A stretch of 10,951 nucleotides of DNA from a virus: the IMG/VR virus record IMGVR_UViG_3300045988_174840; one strand, written 5' to 3'. Below are positions 4,240 through 10,951 of the stretch, piece by piece (position 1 is the first letter of the stretch; each line of letters opens with the position of its first letter). The notes beneath the pieces are model-generated. The model did no database searches and was not told the origin of the DNA. It worked only from the letters and a program-made list of their open reading frames with translations. A program made the translations under genes and the position numbers.

Positions 4240-4249
4240 AATAAAGATA

Positions 4250-4289
4250 GGTATAATTTTAATACCCTTAAGGGTATTAAAATTATACC
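4250..4289. repeat. Perfect 18-bp inverted repeat GGTATAATTTTAATACCC-TTAA-GGGTATTAAAATTATACC (an iteron core in inverted orientation)
   Basis: The arms 4250-4267 and 4272-4289 are exact reverse complements. Confidence 0.9.
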
Positions 4290-4291
4290 TC

Positions 4292-4318
4292 AGTGGTATT
4301 AAAATTATACCAGAAATA
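4292..4318 (+). repeat. Iteron-like 27-bp direct repeat AGTGGTATTAAAATTATACCAGAAATA, copy 1. The core GGTATTAAAATTATACC also occurs at 4273-4289.
   Basis: Identical to 4466-4492. Both copies are followed by similar AT-rich TATATTATA tracts. Confidence 0.85.
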
Positions 4319-4338
4319 ATACATATATTATATTATAA

Positions 4339-4406
4339 AAGAAGTAATTTCATTACTTCGTATTCAAGCACTTCGTGCTTTCATACTCGTAATGAAATTA
4401 CTTCTT
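4339..4406. repeat. Large composite palindrome: 18-bp outer arms AAGAAGTAATTTCATTAC / GTAATGAAATTACTTCTT enclosing an inner hairpin AGCAC-TTC-GTGCT
   Basis: The outer arms 4339-4356 and 4389-4406 are exact reverse complements. The inner hairpin is at 4367-4379. Confidence 0.85.
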
Positions 4407-4465
4407 AGCCGCCGATAATTTTGCAAAATGTCGAAAAAGTGTAACACAATATAATATAATATAAT

Positions 4466-4492
4466 AGTGGTATTAAAATTATACCAGAAATA
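4466..4492 (+). repeat. Iteron-like 27-bp direct repeat, copy 2
   Basis: Exact copy of 4292-4318, 174 bp away. Confidence 0.85.
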
Positions 4493-4545
4493 TTACATAT
4501 TATACTATATTATATTATATAACTATTATATAATAATAATAATAT

Positions 4546-4582
4546 AGGTAATGTATCATACCTTCGGTATGATACATTACCT
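4546..4582. repeat. Perfect 17-bp-stem hairpin AGGTAATGTATCATACC-TTC-GGTATGATACATTACCT (a UUCG-type loop)
   Basis: Exact inverted repeat. It lies at the boundary between the AT-rich origin-like region and the purine tract. Confidence 0.85.
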
Positions 4583-4599
4583 TAGTGTAAATTAAAATG

Positions 4600-5400
4600 A
4601 AGAGTTTTATGCGGGGTGGGGTATTTAGTAGTTGAATCCGCTTTGTTTTAGAGGGACTCTTGTTTAATTTTAAAATGTCAAGGAACGTTTTAAAAAATGA
4701 TTTGAAAATTTTAAGGTTTAAGTAAATTAGGAAAGTTTTTCGGAAGGCATGAGAAAAAGTAAGAAAAGAAGTATGGTATATTTAGAGAATGGCAAAGAAT
4801 ATTACTGAATAATAACAAAGAGTTAGAGAGTTTTGTTAAAAACGAGTTATGGTTTTTTGGTTAGAAAAGTGTGGAAGAGGGTATTTAAATTATAAGAGAA
4901 GTATGGGAGTGCGGAATTGAATTTAATTAAAGTGCTTCCGCATTTAAAAAGCAAGGTTAAATAAAAATTGCGGGTTACAGAATTGCTTAAATAAAATTAT
5001 TAAAATTTTGCGTGAGGAGTTTGATTTTGGAGAGAATTAAGGGTAGCTTTAATAAAATATAAAGATTGGATTAAAGGTGCGTAAGGTTAAGATAATAAAA
5101 TATTTTAGAATTAGAGGGAATTGATGATAGGTTAATAAAAATAATAAGACTGAGTAAAGAGAATTTAATGTTTGGATTAAGAGAAAGTATAAGTTAGATT
5201 AAGAGAGAAGAAGGTTGAAGTATATAAAATAATAAGCGGAAGTGAGGATTTTGAGATTGGGTTAAGAGAGGAGTGAGATTAGAGTGAGAGAGCGTAGAAT
5301 TGGAGTGTAGAGAGGATGAGAGTGAGGCGTGAGTGGAGAAAGGATAGAGCGAGGCTGAAAAAATGCGAGAAAAAGGTGAAAAAAATTGTGAGAGTGAAGT
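4600..5400 (+). repeat. ~800-bp non-coding tract that is almost cytosine-free on the + strand (G/A/T only). It carries degenerate GATTAAGAGAG-type repeats.
   Basis: By eye there are about 40 C in about 800 nt, against abundant G. The motif (G/A)GATTAAGAGAG(G/A)AG recurs near 5068, 5174, 5196 and 5258. There is no SD-led ORF of meaningful length. Confidence 0.8.
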
Positions 5401-5430
5401 GCTCAGCCTCACTCTCCCTATCCTACCTCA
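5301..5430. repeat. Long imperfect inverted repeat GAGAGGATGAGAGTGAGGCGTGAG / GCTCAGCCTCACTCTCCCTATCCTACCTC at the 3' end of gene 5438..5833. Candidate terminator or structured element.
   Basis: Arms at about 5301-5330 and 5401-5430 pair over about 20 bp with one bulge. The strand composition flips exactly here. Confidence 0.5.
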
Positions 5431-5437
5431 GAGCTCT

Positions 5438-5833
5438 TTATACGAGCCCAGAGAGGATTTTTCTAATAATTTCATCATCTGATAAAGCTTTTTCATTCTC
5501 CCGTTTTACATCTCTTTTTAAATCTGTATCTACTCTTTTAATTCCAAATGATCTTCCCCTTGGAATATCACCCATTTTACCAAAAGCTTCAATAGTCTTT
5601 TCCATCTTAGTAAACTCTGTCATAAGATTTTTTCTATCCTCAGCAGACTCTTTTTTATCAATAGCTCCAAGAGCAATTCCATACGCTACAAACGCGTCAA
5701 CCAATTTGTTTCTCGCATCTACAATCGCCTTTGTGCGGGTTTCCTTAGTCTGCTCCGCCTCGATTTCAGCTCTTACCGCCTTAAGAATTTCATCTGTTGT
5801 TTTGCCTTCTGCGATCATTCTTTTAATATCCAT
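5438..5833 (-). CDS. Hypothetical alpha-helical protein (131 aa)
   Basis: SD AAAGGAGA is 7 nt before the ATG. Its own promoter lies at 5881-5909. Codon usage is visibly GC-richer (GCG/GCC/CGC) than neighbouring genes. No motif recognised. Confidence 0.65.
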   Translation of the reverse strand: MDIKRMIAEGKTTDEILKAVRAEIEAEQTKETRTKAIVDARNKLVDAFVAYGIALGAIDKKESAEDRKNLMTEFTKMEKTIEAFGKMGDIPRGRSFGIKRVDTDLKRDVKRENEKALSDDEIIRKILSGLV

Positions 5834-5880
5834 AGTATGTTCTCCTTTTGAAATGTTTATTTGTTTTTCTTTATGTATAT

Positions 5881-5909
5881 ATTATATCAAAAAATTATAG
5901 AAAATTCAA
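5881..5909 (-). promoter_or_regulatory. Promoter TTGAAT-17-TGaTATAAT, proximal promoter of gene 5438..5833
   Basis: The reverse complement reads TTGAAT tttctataatttttga TATAAT. Confidence 0.55.
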
Positions 5910-6023
5910 AGGGGAAGACATCTTTCTAGCTATTGTTGGGCTTAATTAGTTTCCAAAAATTTTAAATGAGATAAGGCTCGACGTAAAAATGGAAGGCGGA
6001 AAATAAAAATGGCTTTTTTTACT

Positions 6024-6052
6024 ATTATATCATATATTTTGTTAAAAATCAA
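6024..6052 (-). promoter_or_regulatory. Promoter TTGATT-17-TGaTATAAT with no ORF directly downstream; reads into the long leader towards gene 5438..5833
   Basis: The reverse complement reads TTGATT tttaacaaaatatatga TATAAT. Confidence 0.5.
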
Positions 6053-6187
6053 GCGGAGAGAGGTGAGGTATGTTAAAATTGCGGGATTCTAGAGTAGTGA
6101 TTCAAAATTCCAAACATCTAGGAAAAAAGCCCATATAGGCGATCTTTGTGGTAGGTCGGATCCGAGTCCTTTGAACTCGGACCGCTG

Positions 6188-6216
6188 ATTATATCACAGC
6201 CGCCGCGTTTTGTCAA
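6188..6216 (-). promoter_or_regulatory. Consensus promoter TTGACA-17-TGaTATAAT. Its transcript would begin at the 6154-6185 hairpin.
   Basis: The reverse complement reads TTGACA aaacgcggcggctgtga TATAAT. Confidence 0.6.
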
Positions 6217-6435
6217 TAGGCAAATTATATAAATTTTTCATTATTTTTTTAGTAATATTGCACAAAAAGTCATTTTTACCAAAAATTTCATTAAAAATAG
6301 GATTTTTTTTGGTAAAAATGACTAAAATAAATAAAAATGTACAAAAAAATAGCCAAAAACCGCGTAATTTTTGGCTATTTTATATAGAATATAGAATTTT
6401 ATTGAATTTTTATAAGAAATTTTAGTTATTTTGTA

Positions 6436-6472
6436 TAGAATAGTCAGAAATGTAAATTTTCTGACTATTCTA
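6436..6472. terminator. 15-bp perfect hairpin TAGAATAGTCAGAAA-TGTAAAT-TTTCTGACTATTCTA, 27 nt after the stop of gene 6499..6900. Possible terminator. Two further inverted repeats lie upstream at 6268-6323 and 6350-6377.
   Basis: Exact inverted repeat. The T-run is modest (AATTTTTAG on the + side), so the terminator function is uncertain. Confidence 0.4.
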
Positions 6473-6498
6473 CGTAATTTTTAGTTACCTTGAACTGC

Positions 6499-6900
6499 TT
6501 ACTCCTCTACAGCTTCCTCTTCCTCTTCCTCTTTTGCAAGAGAGAAATAAGGAACTCTTTTTTCAACTGTTCTAACTACCTCTCCAGATTCGATAAGCTG
6601 TTTAAGAAGAGCCGATAATTTCTGAGAAGAAAGTTTACTCATTTCAGAGTTTTCCTTAATCATGGTTGAAACTGTAACAGGTTTATCAAATAACTCCAAA
6701 GCTACAAGAATAAGTTTTTTGACTTCCTCATTTTCTTTCTGGTTTTTGGTTTTTTTACCGCTGGAAGATTTTTTATTCAACAGCTCGATTTCATGTCTGA
6801 GAAAGTTAAGTGCTTCTTCTTTTGGTTCAAAGCTACTTTCTTCCAGAAAAGCACTGATAGTTTCAAACCAATCTTTTTTTGTCATTTTGTCTTTCATCAT
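6499..6900 (-). CDS. Winged-helix-like protein with a poly-Glu C-terminal tail (~133 aa), paralog A. Start is ATG 6900 (or 6897); the ATG at 6906 is too close to the SD.
   Basis: The C-terminal 85 aa (KPVTVSTMIKENSEMSKLSSQKLSALLKQLIESGEVVRTVEKRVPYFSLAKEEEEEE) are about 85% identical to 8803..9210. Helix-turn-helix-wing pattern. Promoter at 6934-6962. Confidence 0.75.
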   Translation of the reverse strand: MMKDKMTKKDWFETISAFLEESSFEPKEEALNFLRHEIELLNKKSSSGKKTKNQKENEEVKKLILVALELFDKPVTVSTMIKENSEMSKLSSQKLSALLKQLIESGEVVRTVEKRVPYFSLAKEEEEEEAVEE

Positions 6901-6933
6901 ATTCATTACCTCTTTCTTTCTTTTGATATATTT

Positions 6934-6962
6934 ATTATAGCATACTTTTTTGTTTTTGTCAA
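6934..6962 (-). promoter_or_regulatory. Consensus promoter TTGACA-17-TGcTATAAT followed by the conserved leader ATATCAAAAGAAAGAGG
   Basis: The reverse complement reads TTGACA aaaacaaaaaagtatgc TATAAT. Confidence 0.6.
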
Positions 6963-6978
6963 TTACTTTTTTTATTTT

Positions 6979-7182
6979 TTAATTTTTTCCAAGATACTCT
7001 TCAAGATGCTCGTTTAAGAAATTTATAGTTTCATCCAACCCGCAAATCTCACAAAAGTTTTTAAAAGCTTTTTCAAGTTCTTTTTTTCTAGTTGCTTTTA
7101 TTAATTTAATACAACTCTCATAATCTTCTTTTGTAATAACAAAAGGAACGCATCCATCTTTTTTCAATGTAAATTTTTCCAT
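6979..7182 (-). CDS. Hypothetical small protein (67 aa, several Cys)
   Basis: SD AGAGAGG is 9 nt before the ATG. Promoter at 7215-7243. Confidence 0.55.
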   Translation of the reverse strand: MEKFTLKKDGCVPFVITKEDYESCIKLIKATRKKELEKAFKNFCEICGLDETINFLNEHLEEYLGKN

Positions 7183-7214
7183 TTTTATTTGCCTCTCTTT
7201 CTTTTGATATATTT

Positions 7215-7243
7215 ATTGTATCACATCTTTTGACTGCTGTCAA
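7215..7243 (-). promoter_or_regulatory. Consensus promoter TTGACA-17-TGaTACAAT
   Basis: The reverse complement reads TTGACA gcagtcaaaagatgtga TACAAT. Confidence 0.6.
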
Positions 7244-7249
7244 GCACTT

Positions 7250-7669
7250 TTATAAAATATTTTCAGCTTTTAAGTAATCTCTATAGGAAATATAGCCATT
7301 TTCCGCGAGCCACCTATCACAAGCGTTGGATTCTCTCCAATAATACTCCTCCCAGACTGGAAAAGTTATTATTATTTTATCACTTTCTTTTTTAAGAATA
7401 GTAATAATTGTATTAATACAATGTCCTTTACCCTCAAGCCATTCCTTGAAAGTAACCTTTTCTGCCGCTTCAAACGAAATTGTAAATGAGAAATTAAGCT
7501 CTTTTCCTTTTTCTGTGAGAAAATCAGTTAAATAATTTACAAACTCTTCTTCCTCATAGTTACTTTCGTCCAGCAGTGGAGTTTCTAAAAAATGCTCATT
7601 TGCTGGATTATAAAATCCATTTCTTTTGATGTCTTCAATTAACATTTTAACAACTTTTTCAATTTTCAT
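7250..7669 (-). CDS. Hypothetical acidic protein (139 aa)
   Basis: SD AAGGAATGGGA. Promoter at 7705-7733. Glu/Asp-rich; no motif recognised. Confidence 0.6.
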   Translation of the reverse strand: MKIEKVVKMLIEDIKRNGFYNPANEHFLETPLLDESNYEEEEFVNYLTDFLTEKGKELNFSFTISFEAAEKVTFKEWLEGKGHCINTIITILKKESDKIIITFPVWEEYYWRESNACDRWLAENGYISYRDYLKAENIL

Positions 7670-7704
7670 TTTATCCCATTCCTTCTTTTGATTTTTGTAA
7701 TATC

Positions 7705-7733
7705 ATTATATCAAATTTAATTTGGTTTGTCAA
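7705..7733 (-). promoter_or_regulatory. Consensus promoter TTGACA-17-TGaTATAAT
   Basis: The reverse complement reads TTGACA aaccaaattaaatttga TATAAT. Confidence 0.6.
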
Positions 7734-7840
7734 GTGTTTTTTATTTTTTTATAAGGTTTTCGCATAACACTTGACCAAAAGCATTTCCTTATTATTTTCT
7801 ATTGACATAATCTCAAATTGATTTGATTTTGTCAAGTCTT

Positions 7841-8164
7841 TTAAAAATAACTTCCTAAGCTTGTAATAAAAGTGCTTTCTACAATAAGTTTATTATTTAT
7901 ATAATAAGTAAAAGCAATAGAAGTTACATAAACAGCCAGACCTAAGAGTGAACTTTCAAAAGCACATTCCTGAGAGATATTAAATTTATAGTTTTTATGT
8001 TTAGGATTTTCTTTTAAGAAATTGAAAACAGTCTCGCCTAAACAATCGCCTTTATTATTCATTTCCATGTAATTATGTCTTTCAGAGTTCCAAAAACCGT
8101 GACTGTCTAAAAAATCATAAAGGTCTGCCATTGTCTCCTCAAACATTGTTAAATCGTTTGCCAT
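7841..8164 (-). CDS. Hypothetical small acidic protein (107 aa) with a GFW motif and a hydrophobic C-terminus
   Basis: SD AGAGG is 8 nt before the ATG. Promoter at 8200-8228. It shares the L-D-L-x3-GFW-S-E/D motif with 9361..9636. Confidence 0.55.
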   Translation of the reverse strand: MANDLTMFEETMADLYDFLDSHGFWNSERHNYMEMNNKGDCLGETVFNFLKENPKHKNYKFNISQECAFESSLLGLAVYVTSIAFTYYINNKLIVESTFITSLGSYF

Positions 8165-8199
8165 ATTAAATACCTCTTTCTTATTTATTTTATGTATAC

Positions 8200-8228
8200 A
8201 TTATATCAAAAGAAAAAATAAAAGTCAA
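8200..8228 (-). promoter_or_regulatory. Promoter TTGACT-17-TGaTATAAT
   Basis: The reverse complement reads TTGACT tttattttttcttttga TATAAT. Confidence 0.6.
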
Positions 8229-8419
8229 TGGCATTTTGCACAAAGTATAATAAAATATTTTGTCTATTTTGACTATTGACAAGTTTAGCATTGTGCATAA
8301 CAGAGAAAATTGGCGAATTTTGATATAAATTTTTGTTCATTTTACCTATTGACAAAGAATTTTGTGCAAAACAGAGAATTTTGGGATAAAAAATTTTTTA
8401 TTTTTGTGCATTTTTTCTC

Positions 8420-8448
8420 TTGACAAAATTGTTAGCGTGTGATATAAT
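8420..8448 (+). promoter_or_regulatory. Consensus promoter TTGACA-17-TGaTATAAT on the + strand. It forms the left arm of the 8420-8513 palindrome and has no ORF downstream.
   Basis: TTGACA at 8420-8425, 17-nt spacer, TATAAT at 8443-8448. Confidence 0.55.
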
Positions 8449-8457
8449 GGATATTTC

Positions 8458-8480
8458 GGTCGCCTTGATCCAAGGCGACC
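8458..8480. repeat. GC-rich perfect hairpin GGTCGCCTT-GATCC-AAGGCGACC at the centre of the promoter palindrome
   Basis: The 9-bp arms are exact reverse complements. It sits at the predicted +1 of both flanking promoters. Confidence 0.85.
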
Positions 8481-8484
8481 CGCT

Positions 8485-8513
8485 ATTATATCACACTTTC
8501 GGGTGCTTGTCAA
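8485..8513 (-). promoter_or_regulatory. Consensus promoter TTGACA-17-TGaTATAAT on the - strand. It forms the right arm of the palindrome and points toward the small-gene array.
   Basis: The reverse complement reads TTGACA agcacccgaaagtgtga TATAAT. Confidence 0.55.
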
Positions 8514-8802
8514 TAGGCAAAATAAACAAAATTAAAAAATTTTTGAGCATTATCTTTGTTACATTTTCACAAAATTATAGACTGGAACTCTTTGTGCAAC
8601 AATACCAAAATTATAAAAATTTTTTAGCTATTTTTTGTAATTTATGTACATTGACTTTTTTGTTCTCTGGTATTTTTGAATAAAAAACATCCCTCCAGCA
8701 GCGGATTTTTTGTGCAAAAAGTAGAAAAAAAAATGCACAAAAAGGAGGACGGATTTTGTGCAATCCGCCCTCTTGACAAGGTTTATAAGTTACTTTTTAG
8801 TT

Positions 8803-9210
8803 TTACTCTTCTTCCTCAACTTCTTCTTCTTTTGCAAGAGAAAAGTAAGGAACTCTTTTTTCAACTGTCCTGACCACTTTGCCTGCCTCAATCATTTTTT
8901 TCAACAGTGCAGATAACTTCTGAGAAGAAAGCTTACTCATTTCGGCGTTCTCTTTAATCATTGTAGTTACCGTGACAGGTTTACCAAACAGCTCTAAGGC
9001 AATTCCAATAAGTTCCATAAGCTCCTCATTTTCTTTAATGTGAGCTGTTTTCTTTTTGCCTGGTGCTGAAGATTTCTTATTTAACAGTTCAATCTCGTGA
9101 TTGATGAAGTCAAGTGTTTCTATTTTTTTGTCAAAGTTTTCGGTTTTTTCTACGATGCCAACCAGCAGTTTGAAAAAGTCTTTTTTTGTCATTTTTGTTG
9201 TGTTTGTCAT
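8803..9210 (-). CDS. Winged-helix-like protein with an acidic C-terminal tail (135 aa), paralog B
   Basis: SD AAGAGGA is 8 nt before the ATG. Promoter at 9323-9351. The C-terminus KPVTVTTMIKENAEMSKLSSQKLSALLKKMIEAGKVVRTVEKRVPYFSLAKEEEVEEEE matches paralog A. Confidence 0.75.
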   Translation of the reverse strand: MTNTTKMTKKDFFKLLVGIVEKTENFDKKIETLDFINHEIELLNKKSSAPGKKKTAHIKENEELMELIGIALELFGKPVTVTTMIKENAEMSKLSSQKLSALLKKMIEAGKVVRTVEKRVPYFSLAKEEEVEEEE

Positions 9211-9255
9211 AATTAAATTCCTCTTTTCTTTCTTTAAAAATTTTTTTGGTGGCTT

Positions 9256-9292
9256 GCGGTCGGTGGTCGATTTTGCCGACCAACCAAACCGC
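9256..9292. repeat. Imperfect GC-rich stem-loop GCGGTCGGTGGTCG-ATTTTGC-CGACCAACCAAACCGC in the 5' leader of gene 8803..9210
   Basis: Seen directly in the sequence. It shares the CAGCGG-GGTC...GACC theme with the hairpins at 6154-6185 and 8458-8480. Confidence 0.6.
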
Positions 9293-9322
9293 TGAAATTA
9301 TTTACTACTTTGTTACAATACT

Positions 9323-9351
9323 ATTGTACTACTTCTTTTTACTTTTGTCAA
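9323..9351 (-). promoter_or_regulatory. Consensus promoter TTGACA-17-TACAAT followed by the palindromic TTGTAACAA leader element
   Basis: The reverse complement reads TTGACA aaagtaaaaagaagtag TACAAT agtaTTGTAACAAag. Confidence 0.6.
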
Positions 9352-9360
9352 GCACTTTTT

Positions 9361-9636
9361 TTATTTTTTTTGTTCCCACAAAACTACTTGAGTCATAGGC
9401 TTGTTATTTTCAATCCAAGCAAGGGAAAAAGCTACGATGTTAAAAGGATGCTCAAGAAATTCGATATAATCAATATCAAATTCAAAATCCCATTCTTTTT
9501 GATAAGATTCTAACAAGCTATTGATAGCGTTATAGCTATAAGTATAACTATAACTATCACTGTCCCAAAAACCTGCTTTTATTAAGTCATCTTCTAAACG
9601 ATTTAAAATTTTTTCTAACATTATTATCACCTTCAT
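9361..9636 (-). CDS. Hypothetical small strongly acidic protein (91 aa) with a GFW motif
   Basis: SD AAGGAAA is 9 nt before the ATG. Probably co-transcribed with 9699..10073, since no separate consensus promoter was found. Confidence 0.55.
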   Translation of the reverse strand: MKVIIMLEKILNRLEDDLIKAGFWDSDSYSYTYSYNAINSLLESYQKEWDFEFDIDYIEFLEHPFNIVAFSLAWIENNKPMTQVVLWEQKK

Positions 9637-9649
9637 TCAATGTTATTTC

Positions 9650-9678
9650 CTTGCTACCGCTTAATAAGCGGTAGCAAG
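9650..9678. repeat. Perfect 11-bp hairpin CTTGCTACCGC-TTAATAA-GCGGTAGCAAG between genes 9699..10073 and 9361..9636. It overlaps the SD of the downstream gene.
   Basis: Exact inverted repeat. The 3' arm on the minus RNA ends in CAAGGAAAT, which is the SD of gene 9361..9636. Confidence 0.8.
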
Positions 9679-9698
9679 TTTATTAAATTATTTAGTTT

Positions 9699-10073
9699 CT
9701 ATTTCTTTTTTGGCGGTCGATGCTTAATCAAAGAAATTGAATACTCGGACTCACCGATTTTGAAAGTAATTTCTTTTTGTGGATTTGCGATTGCTACACT
9801 TTCAAAGTCCATTTCTTCATTTTCTTTTAAGTAGCTTGCTAAAATCTCAATAATTTTAACTTTTTCTGCATCAAGTTTGATTTCACGCTTTTTCGTGCTT
9901 TTTTTCTCTGGTGTACTCTGGACATAATTCTTAATGCCTTTAGCCTTAATCTCCATTTCTGCCATTTCAAGAGCTTCCTCTTTTGTTACGGGTTCTCCAT
10001 CCGCTTCAAATTCTTTCATAAGCTTAATAGCAAGCTTTTCGATTGCATCTGCGGTCACTGTTGTTTTAGCCAT
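9699..10073 (-). CDS. Hypothetical protein (124 aa), Lys/Glu-rich
   Basis: ATG at 10073 with an AAAGGATG-type SD about 11 nt upstream. Promoter at 10122-10150. Confidence 0.55.
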   Translation of the reverse strand: MAKTTVTADAIEKLAIKLMKEFEADGEPVTKEEALEMAEMEIKAKGIKNYVQSTPEKKSTKKREIKLDAEKVKIIEILASYLKENEEMDFESVAIANPQKEITFKIGESEYSISLIKHRPPKKK

Positions 10074-10096
10074 GTTACATCACATCCTTTTTAAAA

Positions 10097-10160
10097 TTTA
10101 CTATTAACTTGTTACAATGGTATTATATCGCACCTTAGCTTAAAAGTCAAGCATTTTCGT
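10097..10160. repeat. Perfect 64-bp direct repeat, copy A (promoter + leader + last 5 codons of the exonuclease gene)
   Basis: Identical to 10888-10951 at an offset of 791 bp. Confidence 0.9.
10122..10150 (-). promoter_or_regulatory. Consensus promoter TTGACT-17-TATAAT plus a TTGTAACAA leader, lying within the 64-bp direct-repeat copy A. Its -35 overlaps the exonuclease stop codon.
   Basis: The reverse complement reads TTGACT tttaagctaaggtgcga TATAAT accaTTGTAACAAg. Confidence 0.6.
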
Positions 10161-10857
10161 GTAATTCTTTTCTTTTTTTCTGCGGCAGTCTCCAACATGA
10201 CGGCTTAATACTTCTATCCATTTTTTTATGCTGGTCAAAACATTTTTTCATAATTTCAATTTCAATTTTTACATCTTCTAAACCTGTATGAGATTCTACA
10301 AAATCAATATTCTTTTTAATATATTTATAGCATACCTCAGCGTTAGTTAAAAGATTGCCTTTTTCAGACTCAAATCCGTTTTTCTCAGCAAATTTGATAT
10401 AGGTGTTTGTACTTAAAATCATCTGGCAAGCCATATTCCAAATACAAAAATATTCTGTGCCATAAGGGAAAAACCAGCGAATAAAACTTTTGCTATGGTA
10501 TCTAATAGCATTGTTTAATGCTTTTCTATCAAAATTCATATTGTAAGCACCAACTTTTTTCACATTATATTCTTTCATGTCTGCAAACATCTGTTTTCTA
10601 ATATTGAAGATGCTTTTCATGGTTCTTTTTCCGCTTTTTAAATCATCCCAATATTTTGGGATTTTTTTAGCGTAGTAGGCACTATTCATAGCTTCTTTCA
10701 AGTCAATAAATGTCTCAGCGACTACAAAGCTTCTTTCGGTGACAATGTTACCGTGTCTATCTGCAATAGCATAACCAATATCATAAGGGATTGGCTCATT
10801 TACACTATTCGCAGTTTCTGTATCCAATACCATGAAAAACTCTTTTCTTCTACTCAT
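10147..10857 (-). CDS. DEDDh (DnaQ-like) 3'-5' exonuclease, ~236 aa. Start is ATG 10857; the ORF-track start at 10872 is a TTG with no SD.
   Basis: Exo I MVLDTETAN. Exo II VGAYNMNFDRKAL. Exo III HTGLEDV (H-x4-D). GAGGAAA lies 6 nt before ATG 10857. Promoter copy B is at 10913-10941. Confidence 0.8.
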   Translation of the reverse strand: MSRRKEFFMVLDTETANSVNEPIPYDIGYAIADRHGNIVTERSFVVAETFIDLKEAMNSAYYAKKIPKYWDDLKSGKRTMKSIFNIRKQMFADMKEYNVKKVGAYNMNFDRKALNNAIRYHSKSFIRWFFPYGTEYFCIWNMACQMILSTNTYIKFAEKNGFESEKGNLLTNAEVCYKYIKKNIDFVESHTGLEDVKIEIEIMKKCFDQHKKMDRSIKPSCWRLPQKKRKELHENA

Positions 10858-10887
10858 TTTTGATTTCCTCAACTTTCATTTATTTTT

Positions 10888-10951
10888 TTTACTATTAACT
10901 TGTTACAATGGTATTATATCGCACCTTAGCTTAAAAGTCAAGCATTTTCGT
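10888..10951. repeat. Perfect 64-bp direct repeat, copy B (runs to the window edge); contains promoter 10913-10941 for the exonuclease gene
   Basis: Identical to 10097-10160. It includes ...TCAAGCATTTTCGT, the stop codon plus C-terminal codons of an exonuclease-like ORF, which implies a further homologous gene end just beyond the window. Confidence 0.85.

Follow-up and report, generated by a model that had tools for sequence, protein, structure and literature searches.

The DNA analyzed here (the window) is a stretch of 10,951 nucleotides (nt) from the uncultivated virus record IMGVR_UViG_3300045988_174840 in IMG/VR, and the subject of this work is its spacer at positions 8165–8802, termed the hub, which separates two minus-strand genes encoding proteins of 135 and 107 amino acids (aa). 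Analysis of the hub indicated that it is probably an array of early-promoter cassettes serving as a transcription control and boundary node, in which a factor on phased boxes would set promoter activity or timing, a head-on promoter pair together with a hairpin would separate the two transcription units, and the outward promoter P3 would give a short RNA with a 5′ hairpin.

The heptamer TTGTGCA occurs nine times on the two strands of the window, against 1.08 expected, and none of 200 whole-window shuffles reached nine. Eight of the copies lie in the hub, at 8237–8243 (−), 8291 (+), 8362 (+), 8404 (+), 8592 (+), 8710 (+), 8734–8740 (−), and 8756 (+), and the ninth lies outside it at 6259–6265 (−). 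When positions 8215–8800 (29% G+C) were shuffled alone with dinucleotides preserved, the 8 observed copies compared with a mean of 0.24 and a maximum of 3 (0 of 2,000 shuffles), and the 3 copies of TATTGACAA compared with 0.018 expected (0 of 2,000). A first-pass annotation of the letters had described this region as densely packed with repeated motifs and had named a shuffled-sequence control as the way in which the excess might vanish; in that control, the motif counts stayed far above those of same-composition shuffles, and the eight TTGTGCA between 8237 and 8762 agree with the description. Its motif coordinates were right to a few bases, with offsets of 0–7 nt (8369 becomes 8362, and 6270 becomes 6259–6265). 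For its second motif, the sites at 8273–8282, 8346–8355, and 8507–8516 (−) hold as CTATTGACAA, while the copy at 8417–8426 reads CTCTTGACAA. The string TATTGACAA, which it had treated as a separate motif, is the extended consensus −35 of the promoter cassette; TTGACAA is found 13 times in the window, mostly as the −35 boxes of gene promoters, and is not hub-specific. Maximal-order Markov k-mer enrichment was uninformative, and a full-text literature search for TTGTGCA returned primer sequences only.

The hub is non-coding, with single-base insertions and deletions between close relatives, and consists of the following elements.

8200–8243, minus strand: box promoter of the 107-aa gene (11/12 with TG), with TTGTGCA at 8237–8243, −35 TTGACT at 8223–8228, and −10 TATAAT at 8200–8205.
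8257–8312, plus strand: decayed cassette u1, with degenerate box TTGTCTA at 8260–8266, CTATTGACAA at 8273–8282, and, in the place of the −10, TTGTGCA at 8291–8297 plus AACAGAGAA at 8299–8307.
8331–8391, plus strand: decayed cassette u2, a tandem copy of u1, with degenerate box TTGTTCA at 8333–8339, CTATTGACAA at 8346–8355, TTGTGCA at 8362–8368, AACAGAGAA at 8370–8378, and TTTGGGATAAAA at 8380–8391.
8404–8448, plus strand: P3, a perfect box promoter antisense to the flanking genes (12/12 with TG), with TTGTGCA at 8404–8410, −35 at 8420–8425, and TGTGATATAAT at 8438–8448.
8449–8480, plus strand: leader GGATATTTC (8449–8457) and GC-rich hairpin GGTCGCCTTG-ATC-CAAGGCGACC (8458–8480, fold prediction), between the two predicted start sites.
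8485–8529, minus strand: P4, a perfect promoter in gene direction, head-on to P3 (12/12 with TG), with −10 at 8485–8490 (TGTGATATAAT to 8495), −35 at 8508–8513, and degenerate box TTGTTTA at 8523–8529.
8592–8656, plus strand: distal-type box TTGTGCAACAATACCAAAA from 8592, then a degenerate cassette (TTTGTAA at 8634–8640, TTGACT at 8651–8656, no good −10).
8710–8740: convergent inverted box pair, TTGTGCA at 8710–8716 (+), 17 nt, and TGCACAA at 8734–8740.
8745–8772, minus strand: intrinsic terminator of the 135-aa gene, stem-loop 8772–8745 (11 pairs) followed by a T-run (terminator scan, fold prediction).

At the left end of the hub, the box of the 107-aa gene promoter lies 8 nt upstream of the −35, and a ribosome-binding site (RBS) and ATG follow (L001, 10983+). 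In the decayed cassettes, the tandem units recorded in the first-pass annotation are real: TTGTGCA(A/T)AACAGAGAA stands at 8289–8307 and 8360–8378 (84% alike), and both units belong to a tandem duplication of about 73 base pairs (bp), 8243–8282 / 8316–8355. The promoter scan found no acceptable −10 at 16–18 nt in u1, and the −35 is the only promoter hexamer of u1, u2, and the copies at 8651 and 8773. The string TTGTGCA(T/A)AACAGAGAA is also located beside hairpins in other phages (L037, L045, L064, and L115). The palindromic promoter pair that had been placed in the middle of the hub is likewise genuine, comprising two 12/12 promoters of sigma-70 type with TG extension (8420–8448 on the plus strand and 8513–8485 on the minus strand); positions 5800–10951 hold five such 12/12 promoters, and these two are the head-on ones in the hub. 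A long imperfect inverted repeat, 8389–8426 / 8507–8544, is also present here. P3, whose box lies 9 nt upstream of its −35 and which is conserved in L011, L020, and L021, aims back into the 135-aa gene, while P4 aims at the 107-aa gene. Their predicted start sites are about 22 bp apart, so that, given standard polymerase footprints, the two open complexes would overlap and one promoter would be occupied at a time. Between them, the hairpin 8458–8480 forms a perfect 10-bp stem with a 3-nt loop and has no T-run on either strand.

On the right side of the hub, the distal box form "TTGTGCAAYAHTACYAAA" is shared with L015 and hub D, and the convergent pair at 8710–8740 folds into a 10-bp hairpin that arises from the two boxes alone. 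The loop of the 135-aa gene terminator holds TTGTGCA (8756–8762, plus strand), with TTGACA (8773–8778, plus strand) 10 nt further on, and A5T6 tracts are situated beside the cassettes. The hub is, as had been supposed, not a simple promoter, and it has the look of a multi-site operator, with boxes at fixed distances from the −35 and from each other and with inverted partners at 23 or 33 bp.

The window contains a second hub of this kind.

5834–6498: sister hub, downstream of the paralog of the 135-aa gene.
6159–6265, minus strand: sister cassette (12/12, fold prediction; conserved in L023), with TTGTGCA at 6259–6265, −35 at 6211–6216, −10 at 6188–6193, and a GC hairpin at 6183–6159.

The sister hub also carries three long AT-rich hairpins at 6268–6376 and 6436–6472 (GTCATTTTTACCAAAAA/TTTTTGGTAAAAATGAC, AGCCAAAAA..TTTTTGGCT, and TAGAATAGTCAGAAA..TTTCTGACTATTCTA), which are conserved in L023, terminator-like, and located downstream of the 135-aa paralog.

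The complete cassette consists of TTGTGCA, 9 (8–10) bp, (CTA)TTGACA(A), 17 bp ending in TGTGn, TATAAT, and GGA, which places the box at about −52 to −46 before a near-perfect promoter of predicted host sigma-A/sigma-70 type. Among the boxes of L001 (a 20-kilobase [kb] locus of the same phage), the distant relative L015, and the gut phage Phass-1 (phAss-1), 15 of 55 stand 8–10 nt upstream of TTGAC[AT], compared with 19 of 7,555 permuted 7-mers. L001 contains 20 copies of TTGTGCA clustered in four long intergenic hubs, the boxes recur in L015, and 13 of the 25 copies in the complete Phass-1 genome fall within 125–135 kb of 136 kb, among small early genes near one end. We then scanned IMG/VR with the pattern TTTGTGCA-N6-CT-N-TTGACA, and the copy counts below refer to the matches listed. 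The cassette was found in at least 120 stretches of viral contigs (4–200 kb, 28–62% G+C) with stereotyped flanks, and the consensus of 118 non-redundant copies reads aAa.T-TTGTGCA-atTTg.CTa-TTGACA-Aa-...-TgTGg-TATAAT-.gaa. Positions left free by the search pattern carry 1.2–1.8 bits, for example the TT at +9/+10 of the box, and the TgTGg before the −10 is also conserved. Homologues of window proteins are encoded in many of these loci (47 carry one of the 241-aa protein, about 50 one of the 135-aa protein, and 23 one of the 124-aa protein), indicating that the cassette loci belong to relatives of the window's phage; the cassette recurs in what appears to be a large, undescribed clade of gut phages of about 130–200 kb. 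In 165 non-redundant box promoters with a −10, the promoter is followed by a hairpin in 90, by an RBS and start codon in 52, and by neither in 23, where the hairpin class is defined by a GC-rich hairpin starting 0–9 nt after the −10 with ΔG ≤ −12 kcal/mol in the first 48 nt.

A scan of bacterial genomes with the cassette pattern returned mainly chance matches across phyla, phage-like contigs binned into metagenome-assembled genomes of Clostridia, and an unrelated Fibrobacter promoter; this mixed outcome indicates the host only loosely, as Clostridia-type. The Fibrobacter promoter, TTTGTGCA-gtgaaCCTA-TTGACA-...TTGTGCA(T/C)-TATATT, is conserved upstream of a repeated gene family in L146, L152, L167, L174, L188, L204, L213, L221, L225, L236, L237, and L252, and reproduces the box-to-(−35) spacing of the cassette in an unrelated phylum, with a second TGTGCA abutting the −10. 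Phass-1 itself contains a second, highly uniform promoter class, TTGACA-(T/C)AAAAAAATTTTT(G/A)TGA-TATAAT-ATATATAGAAAGTGAG, at 10168–22980 of L016 (the reverse complement of 110950–135976), which precedes genes and transfer RNAs (tRNAs) adjoining the box-promoter region and suggests several temporally distinct promoter classes.

Comparison of 227 non-redundant upstream regions revealed that an inverted partner, TGCACAA, begins upstream of the proximal box at a distance of exactly 23 bp in 47 and 33 bp in 33, with few partners elsewhere, and the two classes are one helical turn apart. This fixed phasing points to a dedicated DNA-binding factor as the probable reader of the boxes. A strict divergent −35 accompanies only about one-quarter of the partner boxes, which argues that the partner is more than just another promoter's box. 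In the 33-bp class, an additional conserved motif, ATTTYGGGAT, lies between the boxes, and in the window it is found at 8380–8388. The box itself is a near-palindromic 8-mer (TTGTGCAA / TTGCACAA) with invariant G, G, and C.

The tandem duplication and decay inside the hub are also what would be expected if the cassettes were mainly portable recombination substrates between small accessory genes, with the hub as the scar of repeated exchanges. This explanation, which does not exclude a control node, is possible but less likely than not. The gene content of near-identical contigs appears to differ at intergenic cassettes, an exact 64-bp promoter repeat flanks the 241-aa gene, and a precedent exists in the promoter-early stem-loops (PeSLs) of other phages (PMC2839356, PMC4122927). 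Exchange alone, however, does not explain the box-to-(−35) distance, the 23/33-bp spacing, the strict orientation, or the stem covariation described below, and these constraints argue for selection on function in place. The 64-bp direct repeat (10097–10160 / 10888–10951) consists of a TTGACT-17-TATAAT promoter and leader on either side of the 241-aa exonuclease-like gene (phrog_20187), and resembles a duplicated promoter cassette that could mediate gene shuffling.

Analysis of the hairpin units indicated that the structure is conserved and the sequence of the stem is free. The unit has a conserved leader GGAAAWTT, a stem starting with CG and ending with CG, and often CCAAA as the 3′ flank, and there are 58 distinct 6-nt stem bases among 84 copies. 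In an alignment of 28 sequences, 82.9% of the cells are paired compared with 64.3% in shuffles (0 of 500), a percentage inflated by the choice of copies that fold, and 51 cells show double changes compared with 20 in shuffles (0 of 500), an excess over controls that this choice does not explain. When the partner is slid by 1–3 columns, pairing falls to 31–50%. Among close relatives, the hub hairpin shows a compensatory double change from T:A to C:G in L020. A covariance model built from the alignment (R1) matches the window unit at 8448–8490 (+) with 30.6 bits (E 1.9e-7); in the window, L001, L014, and L015, every match that reaches E<0.01 runs antisense to the local genes, and the matches in the complete Phass-1 genome are confined to the early region. 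Beyond the hairpin, 25 of the 84 copies have a head-on promoter, and at least 24 of the 84 have an A-run plus a hairpin, which is the terminator of the upstream gene read backwards.

Related structures occur in other settings. In the variants L036, L049, L059, L127, and L134, box and TTGACA are followed by only 6–8 nt (AAAATTCG) and then the GC hairpin, with no −10. The 5′ leader of the 135-aa gene holds, at 9246–9290 (−), a GC-rich hairpin, GCGGTTTGGTTGGTCGGC-aaaat-CGACCACCGACCGC, with AATTTCA before it and ...CCACCAAAAAAA after it; this hairpin resembles the hairpin unit in sense orientation and lies about 30 nt downstream of the promoter of that gene (−35 at 9351). Readings of the unit as a tRNA-like minihelix, a CRISPR-repeat mimic, or a single-stranded DNA promoter hairpin (Frpo-like) were dropped, as the stems differ between copies, a T-loop and a consistent CCA are missing, and no single-stranded DNA stage exists.

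The covarying stem with free sequence invites another explanation, namely that each hairpin unit encodes a short, abundant non-coding RNA of about 40–90 nt, made from a very strong promoter and stabilized by a 5′ GC stem-loop, and that the boxes merely regulate these RNA genes. In trans, such RNAs would, for instance, decoy a host nuclease or a defense sensor; in cis, they would be antisense to the 3′ end and terminator of the upstream messenger RNA (mRNA). The hairpin starts 0–9 nt past the −10, at or near +1, conservation extends to the leader GGAAAWTT and to the CG...CG base of the stem, the units are strictly antisense, and the L015 transcript would run via an A-rich linker into the reversed upstream terminator, a typical small RNA architecture (z −4.3, −6.7). 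We nevertheless regard this explanation as doubtful: the stems differ between copies within one genome, which makes a sequence-specific target in trans unlikely, face-to-face units start the second promoter inside the stem (leaders of 1–4 nt), some variants lack a −10 beside the hairpin, and Rfam gives no match. In the Rfam 15 search, nothing came near threshold in the window or in L015, L029, L032, and L134, and a match to cow-rumen-3 was dismissed (29.7 bits against a threshold of 86.7, and located elsewhere).

The fixed distance between box and −35 in more than 100 promoters raises the question of whether the host RNA polymerase itself contacts TTGTGCA, as an UP-element-like or second −35-like site. 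The box does resemble an inverted −35 plus one base (TTGCACA versus TTGACA), and it is also present at some apparently chromosomal Clostridia promoters (L185/L257, L201). UP elements, however, are A/T-rich tracts at −40 to −60 that alpha-CTD contacts; the box is not such a tract, and A-tracts hold that position in other gene promoters of the same phage. Some boxes also stand with no −35 at all, and others lie within spacers or the loop of a terminator or form inverted pairs spaced by 23 or 33 bp. In addition, L014 (IMGVR_UViG_3300045988_168065) keeps the consensus promoters and hairpin units and lacks TTGTGCA, and its hubs are packed with another motif, GTGTAAA(G) (12 copies where 3.0 are expected, a count reached in none of 300 shuffles; for example at 9310–9335, 10440–10530, 13000–13045, and 14155–14465), in what looks like a lineage-specific swap of the box. 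This swap, the G/C content of the box, and the boxes away from any −35 would favor a phage factor over a UP-like polymerase contact, and we consider the latter unlikely.

The 135-aa proteins encoded beside both hubs are a weak candidate for this factor. The genes flanking the hub are as follows.

7841–8164, minus strand: 107-aa gene, downstream of the hub, no family match.
8803–9210, minus strand: 135-aa winged-helix gene, upstream of the hub, with a paralog at 6499–6906 upstream of the sister hub.

Sequence searches of Pfam and PDB with the 135-aa protein gave no match. Its AlphaFold2 model, built from a 15-sequence alignment (predicted local distance difference test [pLDDT] 77.8), consists of an N-terminal helical part and a C-terminal winged helix (H81–87/H96–108/E112–125), consistent with the winged-helix assignment in the first-pass annotation, and Foldseek relates the model to MarR, ArsR/SmtB, HxlR, and Zalpha domains (E about 0.02, probability about 1). 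In a hand alignment to what we take to be the Zalpha sequence of human ADAR1, the key Asn/Tyr of helix 3 are not conserved in the 135-aa protein, and the stems are not strictly alternating CG; a Z-DNA-binding reading was set aside as generic fold similarity. The 135-aa family and the cassette occur together in about 50 of 120 loci, among the matches listed. The supposition that the 135-aa gene is always followed by a hairpin promoter failed, because only about half of the homologues have one within 1.2 kb.

Under the reading of the hub as a control and boundary node, the phage is taken to be large and of lytic type, and the hub, built from several copies of one stereotyped promoter cassette, would control transcription in its early, small-gene region. 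TTGTGCA(A) would serve as operator for a DNA-binding factor specific to the clade. At −49, this factor would either contact RNA polymerase or occlude it; its binding would be cooperative with partner boxes that lie 23 or 33 bp off on the same helix face, and in this way it may define a separately timed promoter class. The head-on promoters would not be occupied together and, with the hairpin, would insulate the 135-aa transcription unit from the 107-aa unit, while the outward (antisense) promoter P3 would yield only a short RNA with a stable 5′ stem-loop.

Several points weigh against this reading. Start sites, promoter activity, and termination are predictions from sequence, and the central hairpin, having no U-tract, departs from the canonical terminator. 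Direct contact by RNA polymerase would also fit the fixed distance of 9 bp between box and −35. Hairpin-abutting boxes with a −35 but without a −10 are not explained by a pure promoter model, and the pairing percentage carries the inflation given above. With respect to the 135-aa protein as the factor, L014 has three copies of its gene and no TTGTGCA, Phass-1 has boxes and its sole detectable 135-aa homologue is weak (E 2e-5, at about 92 kb), and helix 3, the recognition helix, is nearly identical in box-plus and box-minus lineages.

Analysis of the genes around the hub placed the window in the small-gene early region of an uncultivated phage of about 135 kb that is related to the gut phage phAss-1. 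The 135-aa protein is found on metagenomic phage-like contigs of 132–139 kb, where its neighbors are dozens of small open reading frames (ORFs) without Pfam match. The 241-aa and 370-aa proteins of the window share about 45% identity with proteins of Enterococcus phages of about 140 kb, and the 241-aa protein shares about 30% with Phass-1/phAss-1 (136 kb, "code 15 clade"); neither promoters nor repeats are mentioned in the published description of that phage (PMC10607447). At the DNA level, a megablast search with the entire window matched no plasmid or phage, Pfam and PHROGs returned almost nothing for the small window ORFs, and a tRNA scan of the region was empty. The promoter scan placed a near-consensus TTGACA-17-TATAAT promoter before almost every small window gene, and one promoter per small gene is the pattern of a putative early or host-takeover region. 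The nearest named relative (OQ749652) belongs to the "Caudoviricetes code 15 clade," in which TAG is recoded and suppressor tRNAs are present; given this kinship, an alternative genetic code may be required for calling the late-region ORFs of the window's phage, and nothing in the early region of the window suggests recoding.

Two further segments of the window lie apart from the hubs. A non-coding stretch of about 1.2 kb, 4240–5437, is conserved in L023, where it is read on the opposite strand. It holds a perfect palindrome of 21+21 nt at 4249–4290 (AGGTATAATTTTAATACCCTT/AAGGGTATTAAAATTATACCT), repeated GGTATTAAAATTATACC units, long hairpins at 4335–4405 and 4545–4585, and a purine-rich strand of about 600 nt at 4600–5300, and might function as an origin, in packaging, or as the target of a homing endonuclease. 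The adjacent segment 3254–4239 carries, on the opposite strand, a gene for a GIY-YIG endonuclease-like protein (204 aa, Pfam E 1.9e-6) and a 129-aa helix-turn-helix-like ORF. Among the otherwise near-identical contigs L001–L010, this segment appears in 205-aa, 204+119-aa, or 213-aa versions, and the polymorphism suggests a mobile homing-endonuclease cassette.

The genomic context also bears on the idea that the hub is a transcription-primed replication origin, with the boxes as iterons for the adjacent winged-helix protein as initiator, the AT tracts as the site of unwinding, and an R-loop over the GC patch priming in both directions. The boxes are indeed repeated in direct and inverted orientation at helical spacings, a winged-helix gene lies directly upstream of both window hubs and likewise in L014 (2 of 3) and L015, a GC island stands between convergent promoters in DNA of 29% G+C, and A5T6 tracts adjoin the cassettes. 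Such an origin is very improbable, however, since at least four hubs occur in 20 kb and dozens of cassettes per clade member, the same box stands at the same 9-bp distance before 52 ordinary mRNA promoters, 135 aa is far shorter than known iteron initiators, the hairpin needs pairing and not merely GC content, and family searches of the window ORFs detected no replication gene beside the hubs. A plasmid-type partition centromere or a conjugative transfer/replication control region, both raised in the first-pass annotation, can be dismissed almost entirely: the density of short repeats is all that speaks for either, whereas family searches among the 17 window ORFs, including the flanks that the annotation had singled out for ParA/ParB, relaxase, and Rep, found none of these families and no type IV secretion system, no plasmid matched, the context is that of a phage with at least four such hubs within 20 kb, and the repeats are tied to promoter hexamers.

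The distribution of the unit allows a broader, tentative proposal, for which we claim no more than a minor share of probability. The promoter-box-hairpin unit may be a previously undescribed clade-wide element, combining a novel pairing of operator and factor (TTGTGCAA boxes with a phasing of 23 or 33 bp) with a new family of very short, structure-conserved RNAs from head-on consensus promoters, which would enforce the boundaries of early units or act as abundant decoy or antisense RNAs in host takeover. The element, whose architecture is unusually rich and well conserved, is absent from Rfam 15, and no description of it was found in the literature; in gut and rumen viromes, its members already number more than 100. 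The carrier phages (about 130–200 kb, from gut and rumen, relatives of phAss-1, some of them TAG-recoded) are uncultivated and their early genes are nearly all unannotated, and the cassette offers a sequence by which their early regions and transcription units can be located. It further predicts a specific DNA-binding regulator that a defined probe could retrieve, and it is a source of promoter and insulator parts that are compact, very strong, and probably functional in Clostridia-type hosts. Head-on consensus promoters about 22 bp apart around a hairpin are an unusual design, which would suit the study of promoter competition and transcriptional interference.

The closest known counterparts are the PeSLs of T4-like phages, repeats composed of a host-type early promoter and a stem-loop (PMC2839356, PMC4122927). 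Similar to these, the units described here are short, conserved, repeated promoter and stem-loop motifs that stand between small accessory ORFs, in apparently plastic parts of a large phage genome, with duplicates flanking genes. In PeSLs, however, the stem-loop is the terminator of the upstream gene and is followed directly by a co-directional promoter, whereas here the GC hairpin has no U-tract, starts 0–9 nt past the −10 or is flanked by head-on promoters, and runs antisense to the genes. The units also possess an extra upstream TTGTGCA box with phased partners, and they belong to another phage clade, whose host is presumably Gram-positive.

Boxes that define phage promoter classes are exemplified by the MotA box of T4, which replaces the −35 (at −30), and by the p4 sites of phi29 (A2c/A2b/A3), which are A-tract inverted repeats at −82. 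With these systems the hub shares a short box at a fixed distance from the core promoter that would mark a temporal class, a compact region with divergent promoters, and a small phage protein proposed to sit beside RNA polymerase. Here, in contrast, the −35 is intact and consensus, and homology of window proteins to MotA or p4 is not established; the 131-aa window protein has a weak PHROG match to a MotA-like family (E=0.0037) that is below significance.

Coliphages 186 and P2 have the face-to-face promoters pR and pL (PMC3675496, PMC5001618), which in 186 have start sites 62 bp apart and form a single lysis-lysogeny switch with CI/Apl. The hub resembles this arrangement in having two close convergent promoters able to interfere and, around them, repeated operator sites for a putative small phage regulator. 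It differs in that its promoters are about 22 bp apart and both of consensus strength, with a hairpin between them and many such units per genome, and in that no repressor or integrase was seen.

Stable hairpins at or near the 5′ end of transcripts from strong early phage promoters are represented by the 5′-terminal stem-loop stabilizers of the early RNAs of Bacillus phage SP82 and by the promoter-proximal RNA hairpins of lambda nut and HK022 put, to which the unit is likened by general description and not by sequence. Those hairpins precede the genes that they serve, whereas the unit described here points away from genes, toward the terminator of the preceding gene. The element is a phage promoter/stem-loop regulatory cassette that differs from each of its closest known counterparts in a defining feature.

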